Assembly (NCBI GenBank): GCA_000165345.1 | Contig: CM000436.1 | Coordinates: 672,001 to 736,000, forward strand | Length of the DNA: 64,000 bases | Reading direction: 5' to 3' | Part shown: piece by piece, positions 2,741 to 16,696 of the stretch | How positions within the stretch are numbered: position 1 is the first letter of the stretch | How the letters are laid out: every line of letters starts with the position of its first letter | Position numbers and translations under genes: made by a program | Notes under the pieces: generated by a model | The model's database searches: none | What the model saw: the letters and a program-made list of their open reading frames with translations, nothing else | Told to the model about the DNA's origin: nothing

Positions 2741-5700
2741 ATGATCGATCCATTGGGAATCGGGAAAATAATCAATGATAAGTTTGCTCAAATTGGGGAA
2801 AATGTGTTAGGAACAGTTATTGATCAAATTGTGGACAATTCAAGTGCTCACTTAAGCAGTTTGAATGATTTCCAGTCGGTAAGTTTGTGTGCGATTCATC
2901 GAAATAGCAAAATTTATTATTTTATACTTAGTCCTCAATTATGAAGCTTGTACGTAAAGTTGCAGGGTCAAAGTTTTTAAACAAACAGCCAATAGTTGAA
3001 GTTGAGCCAAATATTTATGCAGTAAGGGACGAACAATCGGGTATATATAAATCTGTTCGTGACTCTAGGAGTTTGGGAGTTCTGACAGTCTCTATTGAGA
3101 GAGCAATTATCTCACCTATGGGATTTGATCGTAATATTCGGAATTTTATTACTAAAGAAAATGCAGAATGGGTTTTTGAATTGGCTTTGCAAGGCCAAAT
3201 GCTTGTAAGCCAACCTGTAAGCACTAAAGACTTTATATTGGAGATTCCAGTTAATAGTCCTATGCTTTTGTCCCCAACTAAGAGCTATGGGAATACTTCT
3301 TTAGCTTTTCTGGATGAGAAGCATGAATCAAGGCCAAGTTTTGGAGTTGAAAGTAGGAACTCAAGCGCAGAGAGAGAAAAGGAAAAGGTTTCTGGAGTAG
3401 GTGCCAGAGAGGTTTTCTTTAATTTCAAAGAATCTTTCCAAGTCACTGATATCTCTTCTGATATGAATTTGGATCTGATTTGTAGAGTTCCAATACAATG
3501 TAAACTTACAATAAATCAAAAATTTAACGAAGAAATTGTGGATGAAGATTGCTACTACTCTAAAAACTCTGGATCTATTTTTGTGAATGAATGTGATGAG
3601 GATTCTTCTCTTGTATCAGAAAACATTACTTCTACTAGCTCAGCCAATGCAGATTCTATTTCAAATTTGGGTTCCAACCCTCCAACAAATTTAAACCATT
3701 CTGTTAGTTTACGAATTAACCAAGAACAGAACAATTCATCTGGGACATCTTTTAAGCAGTATAAGATTATTAGAATTGAAAGAAATAAGCCAAACTGTAA
3801 AGAAATATTTGATAAACCGGATGGCGACAATCGCCCTTCTTCTCAGGAAATCCCCTCTCAAGATCAAGAATGGGAAGTCTTATATGAATGTATCCATTTC
3901 GGAAAGGTTACTATTCCAATTTCCTCTGTTTTTCAAGACAAACTTGCCGAACTACCCGTCTTGGACTATTCATTCTACAAAAATTCAACGTTTTATAAGG
4001 CAAATGAGAATCTAGTTTCTGTGTTTTGGAAATCAAGAAACACCAATTGTACTCAAGGCCATGAGAGTAATCTTTTGAAAAGCAATACTGTGGAAGAATG
4101 GACTTTGATTCATGGCAAAAAGGCGGACTCCTGTGATTCAATTGTTGTTAATAGGCCAAATGATTCAAACTTAAAAGATAGCCGAGCATTTCTAAAAGAT
4201 ATAGATCATGAAAGAGAGCCAAAATTAAGGTCCAGATTCAAAAGTGAGAGTAGAATGCATGATGGTTTAATCTCTTCTGGGAATGAAAAAAATGAAAGCA
4301 ATTTTTGTGAATATCAAAATAGAGTTTATAGTGATGAAAGCTCTCAATTTGAGGTCGGATCGAATTTCAAGCATTTAAATTGGTACCATTTATACCCAAG
4401 AACTAGTGAAATGGTTAAATATGTCAGGCCAGTGCCAGGAATCACAGAATACGGGCTTTCAAATCCAATAAAAACTTTAGGATTTATTCAGATCGGACTA
4501 AATTTTGAGACAGAGTGCTGTTCTAAGATTAGCCTTTTAACTAGCTCCTATTTGAGTATGGTAACTGAGAAGCCTATCACAAGGTGGATCCTTCCTTCAG
4601 GGTTTGAGCCACAGTATTTTCAGATGTATGCTGAAAGTTTAAAAATGTTACTAGAGCATTATCCGAGATGGATACCCAAATTCTTCTTCTTACTGAACTT
4701 CAGAATTCCGAGATCTAGGTTTGATAGGGTAATGATTTCCTTATTTTGGGCAATAATTACGTTTGGAGCTTTCAAGGCTAACAGTTTTTTCTTTTTTTCA
4801 TGGATTTTTATGGTTATCCTCCCATTATTAATCTCTTTAACATATAGATTTGGGTCGCAGATTGCTTCTAGAATCCATCAAGACTTCCTTACCAGAATTA
4901 ATATTGAAGAACAAAAGAGAAAGAGTATAACAAGTGCTCTCTCGCAAAAAGGTAATGCTAATATTAAACAGAAAAGTAATATTAGTCAAAATAATAAGAC
5001 GATGAATCTGATAAACTCTACATCTGGAAATATCTGGAAGATGTTCCAGCCTATACTAAATATTAAATATCACTCATCATTAATGATAGGCGATGGAGAC
5101 TTTATTGAGGAGAATATAGATGTAAAACCATTAAATAATGGCACAGGAAAAGAAAAGAAGGATTCTTCCTTTACCAAAATTGTGGATGAAATCTGTGAAA
5201 AGGACTTTTCTAATCTCATTCCCAAAGAAGTATACTTTGGTGATAAAGTAACAAGCAGAGAATACTGTACACAATACGATCTATCCAATGGGGACGGATA
5301 TATATGTTTGGCTAGAACATTAAATAACTCATTGTTAGGGAATAAGGAGAAAGGTAGAGAGGAAGAACTGAGAAGATTGAATTTATCGAACAATGATGCA
5401 TCAAATTTATCTCCACAGTTTGAAAAGCAAAAGTGGGAAAGAGCCCAAGAACATAAAGAAGATTTGAAAACAGAAAAATCAATGGAAGACAAAAATGATG
5501 AGGCAAGGTTTCGACAAAACCTACAAGGAAGTGGAGGAATTGTAGAGACCCCATTTGGAGAGCTAAGATTGGGTCTCAAAATTCCTTATGATAATAAGGT
5601 TGTATCTATTTTCTTTGATGATCAAGATTTGGAGCCTATTCAAACTCAGCTTTCTAACCTATTGGCAATAGTAGAACTTGTTCAGCAATCATTTGCAAGC

Positions 5701-8220: not shown

Positions 8221-8528
8221 TGAACTGGCGGTACTTTTAATGAATATTTGGATAAAAAGAGTTGAGAGTATTTAGGTTAAAATAAGGCAGTAAGAACAAG
8301 GCTTATCTGATTTTTTTAAAAAAATATTGATATACTAATAAGATTAGACTACGCTTTGGCTGAATTACAGATTAGCCAAAACTCATCAGTTGTGTAATCG
8401 TATTAATTTAAAATAAAGCTGGATCATGAAAAGGCATTGTTAAGGTCTGTATGAAGTTCTTGCTATAAAGATACTATATTTTTAGGAAAGAACACGAATA
8501 GAACATTGAGAGTACGAAAAGAGTGAAA

Positions 8529-10415
8529 ATGTCTCCTATTACATTGAAGCAATATGTTTTGCTTAGTTTCGGGCTACTTTTGGGGCTTTTTGTACATTTA
8601 TTAAGTGTATACGATTTTTACTTTTACCACATAATCATGCACATAACTATAACCAAAGCGTCCACCATGATAATTACAAATGCAGGTTTATTGACTTTAT
8701 ACTTTTTGGGTAAGGTTATTTTGAATATGTTTGTGGGAAGATTAAGAGATATTGAACTGGAAGAAATCATTGATCAAGGGCGAATGTTTTTATTAGATAC
8801 AATCTTTTTTTTGTTATTTAGTAGCCCAACAATAGATAATATAGAAGTTGGAGCAATGGTCCTTTCAAGATACATTACTCTTATTTTGGTTTTAAAGCTT
8901 TTACATTTAATTTCCCATATTCGAATTAACCACATGTTTGAATTAGACAGACCAAAAACTACTGCAATTGTTAGAATGGCAGCTTTGCTTAATATTCTCC
9001 TGATTATTGACATAAGTTTAGTTTTCAAGTATTATGGCCTATTGTCAAAAGATTCTACTCTGAGGTTGTGGGTATTTTTCGAGAGTGTTTCTTTGCTTGT
9101 TTCATGTAGCACTTCTATTGGTAAATACCTCGTTCATGTTGTAGATTTGAAGCTCCAAGCCATTCAATTATTAATGAGACAAGAGGAGGATGGAACCCCT
9201 GAACAAGGAAATACTCATTCTTCGGGAATGCAAGCTCATAACTTTGTATGGTCGAATAAGAATGCTATATTATTTTATTTGGAGGTGTTTGGCGATATAT
9301 GCTCTTTAATTACTTACCTTCTCTTCATTATTCTCTTCCTTGTGCTAAATCCTTCCAGAATTCCATTATATATTATGGGAGATATCTTCCACGTCTTAAA
9401 AGCTTTGTACAGCAAGCTATCATCATTCAGGAGATATAGAAAGCTCACAAAAAATATTGAAACCAGACTTCAGGAAGCTACACTTGAAGAGATTGAGAGA
9501 ATTGATACTTGTATTGTTTGTAGGGACACTTTGTATATTGGCTCAAAAAAGATTCCTTGCGGTCATGTATTCCATCTGGATTGTCTAAAATCTTGGTTTA
9601 TTCAACAGCAAACTTGTCCAATATGTAGGGCTCCCATAACTATCAGAGATGAAGAGCCTGAACATTCAGCAACTACTGCAGAAGAAGATAACAACTCTCC
9701 ACAAATACCAGAGGACCAGGATGAAACTAATGATATTAAAGATCCCACTTCTTCAGACCAAGCGAAACCCAACATCAATTCAGAGCCTACTAGTGCACCA
9801 TCATCTTCAGCGTTTAATTCAAATGAATCCGGGAGCTCAACTGATGTTAGCTCTGACAGTTTTAAGAAAATCTTCAAGAACTGGATAGTAAGTGAGCATA
9901 AAGCTAAACCTGTTGAAGAAACAACATCAACAAGAATGGCGAAGGACTTGAAAGAAACCAAATTTCAGATATCGAAACACCCTTTGTTTAAAAGCAAGCG
10001 TGATGACTTATATAGAAAGGTTTCAAAAGCTGCAAATAGAGGGGATCATATAAATAGCCTTCCTCCTCAGTTACTTTCACTACAACCTCAAATTTTACTA
10101 GAATTAAATAAAAATTTGGAACAGAGAACATTTGGAAGTGAATATGGAAGTCAAGAGTTTTCTGAAATGATGAGCAAAATGTATAAGAAAAATGCAGATA
10201 TTTGGTTGAATATGGTTAGCGAGCTCATCAAAGCTAAAGAACAAAATTGTATCCAACATTCGGTACCAATTGAACGAAAAAGCAGTATTCACATACAAGG
10301 AGAAAGTTTATCTAATATGTATGAAAGTAGTTCTAGGGCAGACCCCTTGAGAAATCTAATGGATGCTGTCAATAATCAGCTTAACGAAACAAAAAATATT
10401 AATAAGGCTGCTTGA
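8529..10415 (+). CDS. HRD1: ERAD E3 ubiquitin ligase, HRD1/synoviolin-like (multi-TM N-terminus plus RING-H2)
   Basis: The N-terminal half has about 6 hydrophobic helices. The RING-H2 at nt 9510-9626 reads CIVCRDTLYIGSKKIPCGHVFHLDCLKSWFIQQQTCPICRAPI, with the spacing and the W/QQ-TCP motif typical of HRD1. The C-terminus is low-complexity. The track start at 8523 is GTG, and the ATG is at 8529. Confidence 0.85.
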   Translation: MSPITLKQYVLLSFGLLLGLFVHLLSVYDFYFYHIIMHITITKASTMIITNAGLLTLYFLGKVILNMFVGRLRDIELEEIIDQGRMFLLDTIFFLLFSSPTIDNIEVGAMVLSRYITLILVLKLLHLISHIRINHMFELDRPKTTAIVRMAALLNILLIIDISLVFKYYGLLSKDSTLRLWVFFESVSLLVSCSTSIGKYLVHVVDLKLQAIQLLMRQEEDGTPEQGNTHSSGMQAHNFVWSNKNAILFYLEVFGDICSLITYLLFIILFLVLNPSRIPLYIMGDIFHVLKALYSKLSSFRRYRKLTKNIETRLQEATLEEIERIDTCIVCRDTLYIGSKKIPCGHVFHLDCLKSWFIQQQTCPICRAPITIRDEEPEHSATTAEEDNNSPQIPEDQDETNDIKDPTSSDQAKPNINSEPTSAPSSSAFNSNESGSSTDVSSDSFKKIFKNWIVSEHKAKPVEETTSTRMAKDLKETKFQISKHPLFKSKRDDLYRKVSKAANRGDHINSLPPQLLSLQPQILLELNKNLEQRTFGSEYGSQEFSEMMSKMYKKNADIWLNMVSELIKAKEQNCIQHSVPIERKSSIHIQGESLSNMYESSSRADPLRNLMDAVNNQLNETKNINKAA

Positions 10416-10508: not shown

Positions 10509-11726
10509 CTATATAGTTATAACGTAACCGGGGGGAAGTATATCCATTGCAAGATGGATATTACTTCCGATTACTATTGAGACCAATAGGGCAAACCAAT
10601 TAGGGTTTAGCTCAAGAGCCATTGCGAACTTTTCTTTATGTAGAGCAAGGATAAGTGCTTGAATTGCCATCTCTTTCCCTTTTGAAGAGTTATTAAGCTC
10701 AATAAGTCTTCTTGTAAGTACCGGTAATGGCTGATATTTTGCGATTGAAATGATTCCAATAAATGTGGAAGAGCACGGTAGGGTTAGCACCTTAAGAGTA
10801 TCTTGAATGAAAAGAGGAAACTTGGCTAAACTTGGATATAGATTAAATCCAATTACGGACAGATCATTAAAGCATTCTAAATCTGTTGGAGGTGAATCTG
10901 GAGAAAAAATGCTCACGTACTTTTCTGAATAGTAAAAACTATTTATTTCGTTACATATAAAATCCTTGAGAATTTTGTCGGCAGAGCATAGTGGAAGGAG
11001 CGAAACCACCTCAACCTGAGCCTCTGAGAGGTAGACTTTGGATAATCGGTTTTGATCTTGATGATCACCTCCATAATTTAGAAGAAAGTATTTAACTTCT
11101 ACATTAGGGGTTAAACTGCTTTCACTTATATCTTGAAATCTTGGAAATCCACCATTATCCAGCCTTTTGAGGCAACTAGAAGAATCCATGAGCCAGATTA
11201 CAAGTAACTGTCTTTCCTTCCCAATGTTTTGGTGCTCTTCTGTCCAATTTATATTATTTGGTCCTGGAGCACCAAAACTGTTATCAGTTCCATTCTGTAA
11301 TTCAGATCTTTCAATAATAGCACCTTCTTTGAGGAAATCGCTAAAACAATCTGGAATTGGCCTTATTTCTTGTTGATTAATACTATTTTGCACCTCTGAC
11401 TTAATTGGAAAAGAGTCCTGTTCAGTCTTAAGCTCTATATTGCTACTTGTTATTTGCTCCATCAACATATCTATAATCGTAAGCGACGGTACTAATGAAC
11501 AGCTGCCAATTGGATACCAGCTCACCTCCTTAAATCTATGGTTAGCAAAAACTAACTCCCTCTTCATTTCATCCAAGACAAAATAAACAGAAATCAAACA
11601 CTCAGAGTATTCCCTATTAAACTCATCATCTAGAAACAACCGTTTCAGTGCATCTTTGAAATACTCCAGACGCAGAATGGAGTGCTCACTATTAAAATCA
11701 ATGTCAAAAACTATTAAAATCGACAT
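10509..11726 (-). CDS. Hypothetical protein (405 aa); the N-terminus faintly resembles a vWA-like fold
   Basis: The track ORF starts at TTG (11753). The first ATG at 11726 gives MSILIVFDIDFNSEHSILRLEYFKDALKRLF... It is a long clean ORF with TTGGCGCCA 53 nt upstream of the ATG. Confidence 0.6.
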   Translation of the reverse strand: MSILIVFDIDFNSEHSILRLEYFKDALKRLFLDDEFNREYSECLISVYFVLDEMKRELVFANHRFKEVSWYPIGSCSLVPSLTIIDMLMEQITSSNIELKTEQDSFPIKSEVQNSINQQEIRPIPDCFSDFLKEGAIIERSELQNGTDNSFGAPGPNNINWTEEHQNIGKERQLLVIWLMDSSSCLKRLDNGGFPRFQDISESSLTPNVEVKYFLLNYGGDHQDQNRLSKVYLSEAQVEVVSLLPLCSADKILKDFICNEINSFYYSEKYVSIFSPDSPPTDLECFNDLSVIGFNLYPSLAKFPLFIQDTLKVLTLPCSSTFIGIISIAKYQPLPVLTRRLIELNNSSKGKEMAIQALILALHKEKFAMALELNPNWFALLVSIVIGSNIHLAMDILPPGYVITI

Positions 11727-11778
11727 CTTACATAAAACAAACGCTCTTAGCAAGCAAGCTTTACAAAATAAAAACTAC

Positions 11779-11823: not shown

Positions 11824-13140
11824 CTAATCAAAATAAATAGTCTCCAGCTCACTGATTATTCCCGAAACCCTATCAAATATCAGCTTTAGCTTATTACTTT
11901 TAGTTATTTCTTCGTGAAAGATGTTTTCCCTAGCCTCAATTGGAATATCTAACTTCCCAACTTTGTTGAAAATCTCTACGCCCACATTTATACAATCTGA
12001 GATCAAATTGCCTAAAATTGTCATCTGTGATACAGAACCTTCTCTAAATGTATAGACAAGGGTCCCAAACATTAAGGAGGATCTATTTTCTCCAAACTTT
12101 CTGTATGTGTGCCTGATCTTGCACTCCGTTAAAATTTTAGAAATCAGCTCGCACGGTACTCCGAGCCTTTCGCAATCAACTGAAACAAGATGTGTATCTG
12201 TTCCATCTCCAAGTAGAGGAATTCCTGAGTCAAGCATTGTCTGCGCTAGAACAGCAGAGTTATCAAGTGCTGCTGCTACAAACTCACTAGTTCGAGAAGT
12301 TAACATTCCTTGAATTTGGACAGCAAATGACCCAATTTGATGATTATGAGGGCCTCCTTGGAGGCCTGGAAATACTGCGGAGTTAACTTTCTGAAATAAT
12401 CCAGGATTTTTGCTGTTGTTCAACATCAAGAAGCCACCTTTAGGACCACCCAAACTGCTTTGAGTGTTAGAATAAATGATGTCGCAATATCTGTATGGAT
12501 TGTTGTCCTCCCTTCCATACCTATCAAATGATATCAAAAGTGCAATTTCGCTAATATCAGCGACTAAAAAGATTTTAAATTCATTGCAAATCTCACTAAG
12601 CAGTCTGTAGTCTATGAATAATGTTAATACATCGGATGGAACAAGTAACAACTTGGGCTTTAATATCTTACATTTCTCCCTCAGGTCAACTATATCAAAC
12701 CCCCTACCTTTTTTATCCAAATTATAATATTCAACTTGGTAATAATTTTCCAATACAGTGTCAGAATCACCCCTAATCCTCAAAATTCGATCCCCCTTAT
12801 TCAGTAATCCCATACAGATGGCCAACTCAGCATGGCTTCCACTATAACACTGGATATTAAATAGCCATTCGTCATTGCTTTTTTTGTCTAATTTTAGAAA
12901 TTGTTTTAATCTACTTGCGCAGAGCGTTTCTATCTTATCAATAACGTGTGTTCCACCATAATACCTTGTTCCAGGAAAACCCTCTGAATATTTGTTTGTA
13001 AGGATACTCCCAAGGACTTTTCTCGCAGCATTAATCATAACATTTTCCTTGGGGTGTAAGTTTAAATGAGAATTCTGAAAATCTTTTTCCTTATTAATAA
13101 TATTGAATAACTCTTGATCAGATTCAATTGTTGTATTCAT
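11824..13140 (-). CDS. SHMT-fold paralog lacking the PLP lysine (predicted pseudoenzyme or regulatory subunit)
   Basis: Clear SHMT family signatures are kept: LTNKYSEGFPGTRYYGGTHVIDKIETLC (nt 12952-12999 encode TNKYSEGFPGTRYYGG) and VNSAVFPGLQGGPHNH (FPGLQGGP = nt 12349-12372). The canonical TTTTHKTLRGPRGG is YSNTQSSLGGPKGG (Q227-S228 at nt 12457-12462 replace His-Lys). HGGHLTHG is replaced by RGDSDTVLENY. ADxAH is ADISE. The C-terminal substrate Arg (..G[LV]RLGT..) is ..SLMFGT... Confidence 0.85.
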   Translation of the reverse strand: MNTTIESDQELFNIINKEKDFQNSHLNLHPKENVMINAARKVLGSILTNKYSEGFPGTRYYGGTHVIDKIETLCASRLKQFLKLDKKSNDEWLFNIQCYSGSHAELAICMGLLNKGDRILRIRGDSDTVLENYYQVEYYNLDKKGRGFDIVDLREKCKILKPKLLLVPSDVLTLFIDYRLLSEICNEFKIFLVADISEIALLISFDRYGREDNNPYRYCDIIYSNTQSSLGGPKGGFLMLNNSKNPGLFQKVNSAVFPGLQGGPHNHQIGSFAVQIQGMLTSRTSEFVAAALDNSAVLAQTMLDSGIPLLGDGTDTHLVSVDCERLGVPCELISKILTECKIRHTYRKFGENRSSLMFGTLVYTFREGSVSQMTILGNLISDCINVGVEIFNKVGKLDIPIEARENIFHEEITKSNKLKLIFDRVSGIISELETIYFD

Positions 13141-15358: not shown

Positions 15359-16696
15359 CTAATACTTATCTACGATAGAAACAAATTCAAACGATGAGGC
15401 AAACTTTCGCACTGTTTGCCTGATATTCTCTATTGCTGGAGAGGCCTTAATATTAGAAACAAACTCTGCAAGAGTCTCCCCATCCTTTTGAATATCTCGA
15501 GCAGTAGTTAAAACTTCTACAATTATCCTTGAAACGAATTTGAAATCATCCAACTCCATCCCTCTGCTCGCAAGGGCTGCAGTTCCAAGTCTGACGCCAC
15601 TGCAATTCATAGTTCTCCCATCACAAGGTAAAGAACTTCTACTTGTTGAAATTTCGCATACTTCTAGTGCTTTCTCAGCCTTAGCCCCAGAAATGTTCAA
15701 TGATCTTGTATCTATTAGAATTTTGTGGGAATCAGTTCCATTTGTAAGAATCTTGATTCCAGACTCCTCGAGCAATTTGCAAAGCAATTGAGAGCTTTCT
15801 AGCACTCTACTTGCATATTTAACCCAAGAAGCAGAAACTACTTGTTTCAGTTGGAAACAAAGGGCTGCAACTTGGTTGAAATGAATACTAGACTGAATTT
15901 CTTTAGAAACTGACTCATCAATCTTAACTCTGATCTTGGACTCTACGTCCTTTCTGTAAAATATTATTGCTGACCTTGGTCCTCTTAATGTCTTGTGAGA
16001 CGTTGTTGTAATGAAATCTGCGTAGTCTTTGGGTGACGGGTACTTCCCTGCAACCACCAAACCAGAGTAGTGAGCGATATCTACCATCAGGTAGGCCTTC
16101 ACTTTGTCGCAGATATCCCTAAACCTCTTAAAGTTGATCATTCTAGGATACCCACTAGCTCCTGCTATTATCATCTTTGGTCTAAATAGTATTGCATTTT
16201 CTTCCAACTTATCGTAATCTATCACTCCTTCTAAATCAGTTACATAAGGGAGTGACTCAAAATAGTGAGATGAACAGTTAACTCTCTTCAAATTTGTATA
16301 GTGTCCGTGAGTCAGGTGGCCTCCATGTTGTAATGACAATCCCATTATTCTATCATTAGGTTTTAATACTGCATTTAATACTGCAAAATTTGCAGGAGAG
16401 CCACTATGAGGCTTTACATTAGCACCCCATACTTCAGGATCTAGTCCATATGCTTTTAAGGCTCTTTCATTTGTGAGCTCTAATAGTTCTTGTGCAGAAG
16501 TTGAGTTTAATTCCATATTTTTATCATTATTAAACATTGAGAATGTACTTGACAAGCTGTCCAAGACTCCCTTCGATACAAAGTTTTCGGATGCTATCAT
16601 TTCTAGTCCATTAATCTGTCTATCATATTCTTCATTGATTAGCTCATACATAATGGGATCCAGCTCTTTTAATGATTTTTCCTGTAAAAATACCAT
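15359..16696 (-). CDS. SHMT: Serine hydroxymethyltransferase (PLP-binding core intact; trans-acting loops degenerate)
   Basis: Family signatures: GLEMIASENF, HSGSPANFAV, LQHGGHLTHG (nt ~16304-16327), MVDIAHYSGL, TTTSHKTLRGPR (Lys235 codon at 15992-15994) and CSGVRLGTAALASRG. However, the NKYSEG-PG-RYYGG loop is replaced by FSMFNNDKNMELNSTS (nt ~16499-16549), and VFPGLQGGPHNH is replaced by VSKEIQSSIHFN (nt ~15869-15913). Confidence 0.9.
   Translation of the reverse strand: MVFLQEKSLKELDPIMYELINEEYDRQINGLEMIASENFVSKGVLDSLSSTFSMFNNDKNMELNSTSAQELLELTNERALKAYGLDPEVWGANVKPHSGSPANFAVLNAVLKPNDRIMGLSLQHGGHLTHGHYTNLKRVNCSSHYFESLPYVTDLEGVIDYDKLEENAILFRPKMIIAGASGYPRMINFKRFRDICDKVKAYLMVDIAHYSGLVVAGKYPSPKDYADFITTTSHKTLRGPRSAIIFYRKDVESKIRVKIDESVSKEIQSSIHFNQVAALCFQLKQVVSASWVKYASRVLESSQLLCKLLEESGIKILTNGTDSHKILIDTRSLNISGAKAEKALEVCEISTSRSSLPCDGRTMNCSGVRLGTAALASRGMELDDFKFVSRIIVEVLTTARDIQKDGETLAEFVSNIKASPAIENIRQTVRKFASSFEFVSIVDKY

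Follow-up and report, generated by a model that had tools for sequence, protein, structure and literature searches.

Serine hydroxymethyltransferase (SHMT) builds its active site at the interface of a tight dimer. In its canonical form, represented by GlyA and the Pfam family PF00464, the enzyme is a homodimer or homotetramer with two shared sites per tight dimer, and a single polypeptide holds all parts of a complete site. Cryptosporidium, on the contrary, appears to be devoid of any single SHMT polypeptide that is complete. Here, we describe two SHMT paralogs, termed A and B, which are encoded on a 64,000-nucleotide stretch of Cryptosporidium parvum DNA (GenBank assembly GCA_000165345.1, contig CM000436.1, positions 672,001 to 736,000 of the forward strand; hereafter the window). 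The defects of the two proteins are reciprocal, a fact that was missed in a preceding reading of the same DNA (the sequence-only reading), and an A:B pair is predicted to form one active site per dimer rather than two.

Several described systems are related to this arrangement to varying degrees. In Trypanosoma brucei, each heterodimer of DHSc and DHSp contains one functional and one dead shared site, and the roles of the trypanosomatid paralogs are distinct and complementary (PMC7581365, PMC3663545). Like A and B, DHSc and DHSp (PDB 6DFT) constitute two paralogs, one of which lacks the catalytic lysine. They differ from A and B by an unrelated fold and by their dependence on nicotinamide adenine dinucleotide instead of pyridoxal 5'-phosphate (PLP), and their architecture was established biochemically and structurally, whereas that of the Cryptosporidium pair is deduced from sequence. 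Another example is serine palmitoyltransferase, a fold-type I enzyme of the alpha-oxoamine synthase group. Its active site is located at the subunit interface, with the PLP lysine and key residues present only in LCB2 while LCB1 keeps other catalytic residues, and the working model of LCB1/LCB2 (SPTLC1/SPTLC2) assumes that the heterodimer has only one active site (PMC3794620). Unlike A and B, however, LCB1 and LCB2 belong to another PLP family, are membrane-bound and associate with extra small subunits; moreover, their split is ancient and pan-eukaryotic, whereas the split of SHMT is confined to one genus.

Within the SHMT family, the taxonomically nearest relative is the Plasmodium falciparum protein PfSHMTm (PF14_0534). 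Of 21 active-site residues, 16 are missing from it; the recombinant protein is inactive, and heterotetramers of PfSHMTm and PfSHMTc were proposed by its authors (PMC3014972). Furthermore, Arabidopsis SHM7 reportedly lacks the activity that the remaining SHM isoforms possess (PMC10243980). PfSHMTm resembles B in that it is an SHMT-like paralog from an apicomplexan and has no PLP lysine, but neither half of its site is preserved, as both a YEY loop and FPGLQGGP are absent, whereas the partner-directed half of B is intact. In addition, PfSHMTm carries a mitochondrial presequence, while B has no N-terminal extension. PfSHMTc, unlike A, is a complete and self-sufficient enzyme. Hence, the Cryptosporidium case differs from that of Plasmodium, as both paralogs are incomplete and reciprocally so. 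BLASTP aligned B with PfSHMTc at 31-34% identity (E = 2e-58). An orthology of B and PfSHMTm was considered as well and rejected, since BLASTP gave no match below E = 0.6 with a PfSHMTm sequence that was rebuilt from the supplementary alignment of PMC3014972 and contains noise from optical character recognition. A published description of a two-paralog half-site SHMT arrangement was not found in our literature search.

Residues retained and lost in the two SHMT paralogs

Paralog B is encoded on the minus strand at positions 11824-13140 by an uninterrupted, ATG-initiated open reading frame (ORF), which specifies a protein of 438 amino acids with an SHMT fold but without the PLP lysine. It matches the Pfam SHMT profile PF00464 with 252 bits (E = 8e-75) across profile positions 3-372 of 399. 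Paralog A, an SHMT of 445 amino acids whose own PLP pocket is intact while its partner-directed loops are degenerate, is encoded 2.2 kb away on the same strand (ORF at 15359-16696) and matches the same profile with 409 bits across positions 1-399. The two proteins share only 23% identity. B corresponds exactly to C. parvum Iowa II EAK89612.1 / CPATCC_004084, annotated as 'mitochondrial SHMT', while A is 100% identical to EAK89448.1 / CPATCC_004087 of the same strain, annotated as 'cytosolic serine hydroxymethyl transferase'. Relative to canonical SHMTs, no N-terminal extension was found in the alignment of either protein, so that different compartments are not suggested and the label 'mitochondrial' of B is unsupported by its sequence. 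B (13100-13140, minus strand) even starts later than canonical SHMTs and is without a presequence-like extension, although the label recurs in several genomes.

Residues are numbered according to E. coli GlyA unless they are assigned to A or B; the GlyA sequence used is identical to PDB 1dfo_A over 417/417 residues and was aligned together with eight canonical eukaryotic SHMTs, yielding a set of nine canonical enzymes. In this alignment, B reads YSNTQSSLGGPKGG in place of the canonical TTTTHKTLxGPRGG. The codons caa (12462-12460) and agc (12459-12457), at 12457-12462 of the minus strand, encode Gln227-Ser228 of B, which align with His228-Lys229. Codons and alignment thus confirm two statements of the sequence-only reading, namely that the invariant His-Lys is replaced and that the 438-residue ORF is free of frameshifts and stops. 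The Schiff-base lysine (Lys229) and the histidine preceding it (His228) are hence absent from B, whereas A possesses both as His234-Lys235. Gln-Ser is invariant in ten full-length B orthologs and in a fragment from C. felis, while the serine codon varies synonymously between AGC and AGT. The replacement is therefore old and fixed rather than a sequencing error, and, being invariant in every B ortholog, it predates the split of the gastric and intestinal clades. Another lysine of B substituting for Lys229 was rejected, as the only genus-invariant lysines are K50, K69, K79, K163 and K251, none of which resides in a pocket segment; the lysine of B at the position of Arg235 is an arginine in two species.

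The structure of the E. coli enzyme allows the residues of a site to be assigned to the two subunits. The own subunit contributes Ser35, Gly98, Ser99, His126, Ser175, Asp200, His203, Thr226, His228, Lys229, Arg235 and Arg363, as well as the folate contacts Leu121, Gly125, Leu127 and Asn347, while the other monomer provides Tyr55, Glu57, Tyr65 and Gly263, and for folate Glu57 and Tyr64 (PMC7916883). Judged by these residues, the pocket of B is severely depleted. Besides His228 and Lys229, it is without His126, His203, Ser175 and Ser35, and Arg363 is missing in most species. At IRGDSDTVLENYY (12739-12777, minus strand), alignments show that about 15 residues are missing, and the GGHLTHG loop (His126, Leu121, Gly125 and Leu127) is among them. 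In the motif DISEIA (12541-12558, minus strand), Asp200 is kept, while Glu198 takes the place of His203 and does not vary among B orthologs. More generally, the replacements Glu198, Gln227 and Ser228 in the pocket segments of B (12433-12474 and 12541-12558, minus strand) are invariant throughout the genus, and Ser97-Gly98-Ser99 is kept along with Asp200.

The opposite is true for the two segments of B that are directed towards the partner subunit, both of which are fully canonical in the residue table. The first, NKYSEGFPGTRYYGG (residues 49-63; 12952-12996, minus strand), includes Tyr51, Glu53, Tyr60 and Tyr61, which correspond to the partner-site residues Tyr55, Glu57, Tyr64 and Tyr65 of E. 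coli. The second, NSAVFPGLQGGPHNHQI (residues 253-269; 12334-12384, minus strand), contains Gly262-Gly263-Pro264 of the phosphate-binding loop that is donated to the PLP of the partner. The sequence-only reading had considered B otherwise well-conserved; this holds for the two near-canonical loops, but not for the protein as a whole, since B deviates at 58 of the 111 positions that the nine canonical SHMTs share without variation, and its identity with canonical SHMTs is only about 31-35%.

Paralog A displays the mirror image. The motif SHKTLRGPR (15974-16000, minus strand) preserves His234-Lys235 and Arg241 according to residue table and alignment. In place of NKYxEGxPGxRYYGG, A features the segment FSMFNNDKNMELNSTS (16496-16543, minus strand), which is four residues shorter and has lost Tyr55, Tyr64 and Tyr65, with Glu57 aligned at best with an Asp. 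Similarly, ESVSKEIQSSIHFNQV in place of SAVFPGLQGGPHNHQI (15869-15916, minus strand) entails the loss of Phe257, Pro258, Gly262, Gly263 and Pro264. A further alteration concerns the folate-contacting motif xNKNx, instead of which A carries STSRSS (15632-15649, minus strand), with serines replacing Asn345 and Asn347 in all A orthologs; both asparagines are also lost in B.

The reciprocity of these losses can be quantified. With the residues listed in PMC7916883, A keeps 15/16 of its own pocket but 0/5 of the partner-directed residues (Fisher p = 3e-4), as opposed to 3/16 and 5/5, respectively, in B (Fisher p = 3e-3). Extending the list by neighbouring loop residues gives 19/20 versus 0/9 for A and 4/20 versus 9/9 for B. 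A list-free test was based on the 111 columns that are invariant in the nine canonical SHMTs: only 9 of them are lost in both paralogs, compared with 16.7 expected (odds ratio 0.24, p = 0.0016), and 49 of the 58 columns lost in B are kept in A. On the other hand, 23 columns are lost in A and kept in B, and these are concentrated at positions 53-75 and 255-269. Between them, the two paralogs hold nearly the whole canonical active-site inventory, while neither polypeptide is complete alone, and this pattern is present in every ortholog of both genes examined.

Conservation across the genus and predicted folds

Orthologs of B were retrieved from C. tyzzeri, C. hominis, C. meleagridis, chipmunk genotype I, C. 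ubiquitum, C. canis, C. felis (as a fragment only), C. bovis, C. muris and C. andersoni, with identity decreasing to 45% in the latter two species. DNA of the locus was available for seven species, namely C. parvum, the chipmunk genotype, C. ubiquitum, C. canis, C. bovis, C. muris and C. andersoni. The ORF of B is intact and syntenic in all seven, and in each of them A is followed by two small genes, B, a gene of about 400 codons and SYVN1. The ratio of nonsynonymous to synonymous substitution rates (dN/dS) was estimated by the Nei-Gojobori method (NG86) with C. parvum as reference; between more distant species, synonymous sites are saturated. For B, it amounts to 0.079 versus the chipmunk genotype (dS 0.71) and 0.097 versus C. 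ubiquitum (dS 0.96), and for A to 0.083 and 0.079, respectively. Two flanking genes exhibit higher values of 0.13-0.16 in both comparisons. The view of the sequence-only reading that B is under selection and not a decaying pseudogene is therefore sustained by a dN/dS equal to that of A and below that of the flanking genes, as well as by the undisrupted frames of the orthologs.

Selection acts most visibly on the partner-directed loops of B, which are the most conserved parts of the protein: 73% and 68% of their columns are invariant versus 27% overall. The same two loops are among the least conserved parts of A, with 23% and 32% versus 40% overall. In the seven species, 12/15 codons of NKYSEGFPGTRYYGG and 13/17 codons of NSAVFPGLQGGPHNHQI are amino-acid-invariant, and 9 and 11 of these, respectively, have undergone synonymous changes. 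Hence, of the 25 invariant codons among the 32 in both loops, 20 differ synonymously, and this turnover beneath unchanged amino acids provides direct evidence of selection on the loop residues of B.

The A gene of C. bovis (GCA_009768925.2, L002:~5240-5265) contains a one-base frameshift in a run of nine T, and the annotation fuses it into a product of 1263 amino acids. Dropping one T restores the conserved ORF of 446 amino acids; since the downstream frame is conserved, the frameshift most likely represents an assembly error.

Structure prediction with AlphaFold2 yielded a mean predicted local distance difference test score (pLDDT) of 91.5 and a predicted template modelling score of 0.91 for B, compared with 89.3 and 0.89 for A, and Foldseek superimposed the B model on solved SHMTs from soybean, human, Plasmodium and others with TM scores of 0.86-0.90. 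Both proteins are thus confidently predicted to adopt the SHMT fold. In these monomer models, the blocks that hold the partner-directed loops are of reduced confidence, with pLDDT values of about 75-79 in B and 59-72 in A. Residues 57-60 of A fall below 50 and residues 261-270 score 59; only the block 131-140 and the C-terminus of A are lower than its loop blocks. Low loop confidence fits segments that would become ordered only against a partner and, in the case of A, segments that have degenerated.

Homology searches with A and B as queries, from which the best 120 matches per query were considered, gave 240 homologues. Among these matches, His-Lys is absent only from the Cryptosporidium B proteins and from one anomalous protein of C. 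serpentis, whereas the YEY and QGGP motifs are absent only from Cryptosporidium A-type proteins; all remaining proteins carry all three motifs. A canonical SHMT of Cryptosporidium was not among the 240 matches. A profile built from B orthologs and searched against 1.84 billion representative proteins revealed no close relatives of B outside the genus, as scores of 856-521 bits for Cryptosporidium B are followed by a drop to 261 bits.

The anomalous C. serpentis protein (P0132; GCA_051169045.1, L006:8001-9680) is A-like and 55% identical to C. muris A. Its gene resides in a non-syntenic context, with a ThiF gene upstream and a ubiquitin-like gene downstream, and the protein bears a low-complexity insertion of about 120 amino acids where the degenerate loop of A lies. 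No B ortholog of C. serpentis was found among the matches listed in the homology searches.

A proposed obligate heterodimer and competing explanations

We favour the explanation that A and B constitute an obligate heterodimeric SHMT in which one active site is composite and the other dead, to which we assign a probability of roughly 0.65 on the basis of sequence. The further-reaching statement that such a heterodimer of reciprocally half-degenerate paralogs, with its one composite and one dead site, provides the only SHMT activity of Cryptosporidium appears to us somewhat better than an even bet. In the composite site, A would supply Lys235-PLP together with the pocket half, while B would supply Tyr51, Glu53, Tyr60, Tyr61 and Gly262-Gly263, which would reach into the pocket of A. 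The second site, composed of the pocket of B and the loops of A, would be degenerate on both sides and thus dead. Cryptosporidium possesses DHFR-TS, and its synthesis of deoxythymidine monophosphate requires 5,10-methylene-tetrahydrofolate, which the A:B enzyme would deliver to the DHFR-TS thymidylate cycle. A and B exhibit the features of a complementing pair: they are co-conserved paralogs, the lysine-less B keeps the residues that act in trans, and the lysine-bearing A is incomplete. From this we infer that the two proteins would physically associate, that the composite site would be active and that homodimers would be inactive, in the case of A owing to the loss of the trans residues. The heterodimer would explain why strong selection maintains the lysine-less B and leaves the residues that reach into the partner unchanged, and likewise how the lysine-bearing A could afford to lose its partner-directed residues. 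As for the origin of the pair, a duplication before the radiation of the genus is likely, followed by complementary loss that would have locked both copies together. In a neighbour-joining tree with 100 bootstraps, A grouped with B plus PfSHMTc at 38% and 59% support, on long branches.

The sequence-only reading had instead ascribed a non-catalytic role to B, which is probably wrong or incomplete: B maintains the partner-site residues, including Glu57 and Tyr65, under purifying selection, and A has lost them. Rather than having been recruited to an unrelated function, B seems to provide the other, essential half of a composite catalytic site. A stand-alone pseudoenzyme B engaged in binding, regulation or scaffolding, next to an A that works as a homodimer with unusual loops, would nevertheless have precedents among non-catalytic family members such as PfSHMTm (PMC3014972) and Arabidopsis SHM7 (PMC10243980), and the invariance of Glu198, Gln227 and Ser228 hints at a constraint of its own on B. 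We consider it unlikely, as it leaves unexplained why 9/9 partner-directed residues of B are under purifying selection while its own pocket was discarded, and why exactly these residues are lost only in A-type proteins among the matches listed. Moreover, an A homodimer would be devoid of Tyr55, Tyr64, Tyr65 and a true Glu57, and the Plasmodium precedent is imperfect, since PfSHMTm, unlike B, retains neither half of the site and was not matched to B by BLAST. An equally heteromeric but purely allosteric solution, in which B activates A in the manner of a prozyme, through an altered conformation or stability of A and without donating catalytic residues, strikes us as quite improbable. This mechanism is established for AdoMetDC and its prozyme in T. 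brucei (PMC5201418), and it has been proposed for the PfSHMTc/PfSHMTm heterotetramers (PMC3014972); yet allostery alone would not demand that Glu57, Tyr65 and Gly263 be strictly kept in B, and the residues lost from A would stay unreplaced.

It is very improbable, in our estimation, that neither protein catalyzes the SHMT reaction, be it that the pair has adopted another PLP-dependent or a non-enzymatic function, or that it is being lost because thymidine salvage renders the thymidylate cycle expendable. The parasite is reported to survive the loss of classical nucleotide-pathway targets (PMC8612570), both paralogs lack Asn345 and Asn347, and in C. serpentis the lysine and the degenerate loop of the A-like protein are altered while B is missing from the matches listed. 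These points are opposed by dN/dS values of about 0.08-0.10 in both genes, and by the persistence of 15/16 pocket residues in A and of all partner residues in B since the gastric/intestinal split, the signature of a maintained SHMT-type site. The missing catalytic lysine and the many missing pocket residues could finally be taken to mark B as a decaying pseudogene or as an artefact of annotation or sequencing. The chance of this is negligible given the intact ORF in seven species, dN/dS values of about 0.08-0.10, synonymous turnover over invariant residues and a confidently predicted fold, and the pseudogene reading in particular is ruled out by the dN/dS and ortholog data.

Several observations nonetheless weigh against the proposed A:B heterodimer. 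The conversion of NKN to SRS in A, together with the loss of the motif in B, implies that the composite site is not fully canonical and that its pteridine pocket is altered. The conserved Asp in the degenerate loop of A may align with Glu57, and this possible equivalence, in conjunction with the main-chain nature of the Gly262/Gly263 contacts, makes a weakly active A homodimer conceivable. Since the pocket replacements of B are invariant and Ser97-Gly98-Ser99 and Asp200 are kept, the 'dead' site may have a function outside the heterodimer model; the pattern hints at a structural or ligand-binding constraint for which this model offers no explanation. Furthermore, C. serpentis P0132 reads THM in place of THK, i.e. 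the Schiff-base lysine is replaced by methionine, so that the catalytic role of A may not be universal in the genus. This protein could mean that the entire system has decayed in this lineage, or it could be artefactual. A third, canonical SHMT gene, absent from the best 120 matches listed per search, is unlikely. Lastly, a full-text literature search returned nothing on the subunit structure, activity or expression of Cryptosporidium SHMT; where a proteomics paper on C. parvum mentions SHMT, host SHMT2 is meant.

Genomic surroundings, related proteins and implications

The window has a GC content of about 32%. Directly downstream of B, an ORF of about 400 codons (10509-11753, minus strand) is without a Pfam match; its position is kept in 7/7 species and its dN/dS amounts to 0.13-0.20. 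The conserved end of the syntenic block is formed by a synoviolin/Hrd1-type, endoplasmic reticulum-associated RING E3 ligase (8523-10415, plus strand), which features PF25563 and a RING-H2 domain.

Half-degenerate SHMT-like proteins were also noticed outside Cryptosporidium (P0276, P0280, P0314, P0379 and P0269). An alignment-based table of the lower profile matches contains pocket-dead, loop-intact proteins from Papaver somniferum, Papaver armeniacum and two other assemblies, as well as a pocket-intact, loop-degenerate protein from Paramecium primaurelia. These half-dead paralogs in Papaver, Paramecium and metagenomic sequences suggest that the same route was maybe taken more than once.

SHMT feeds the thymidylate cycle that is attacked by antifolates, and the enzyme is pursued as a drug target in Plasmodium, while few validated drug targets exist for Cryptosporidium. 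The reciprocal pattern is readable from sequence, and the residue test employed here could be extended to other enzyme families with interface sites. If the A:B heterodimer is correct, it would be the first natural SHMT of the heterodimeric half-site kind and an unusually clean natural instance of complementary half-site degeneration, resembling the mixing of two inactive point mutants of a shared-site dimer, with A and B each being a pseudoenzyme alone. Either gene expressed by itself would then give inactive protein and mislead screens, and the annotations as 'cytosolic' and 'mitochondrial' SHMT would be misleading as well. In turn, the interface of the heterodimer, its dead site and the folate pocket changed from Asn347 to Ser would be specific to the parasite, and the interface and this pocket would offer drug targets.

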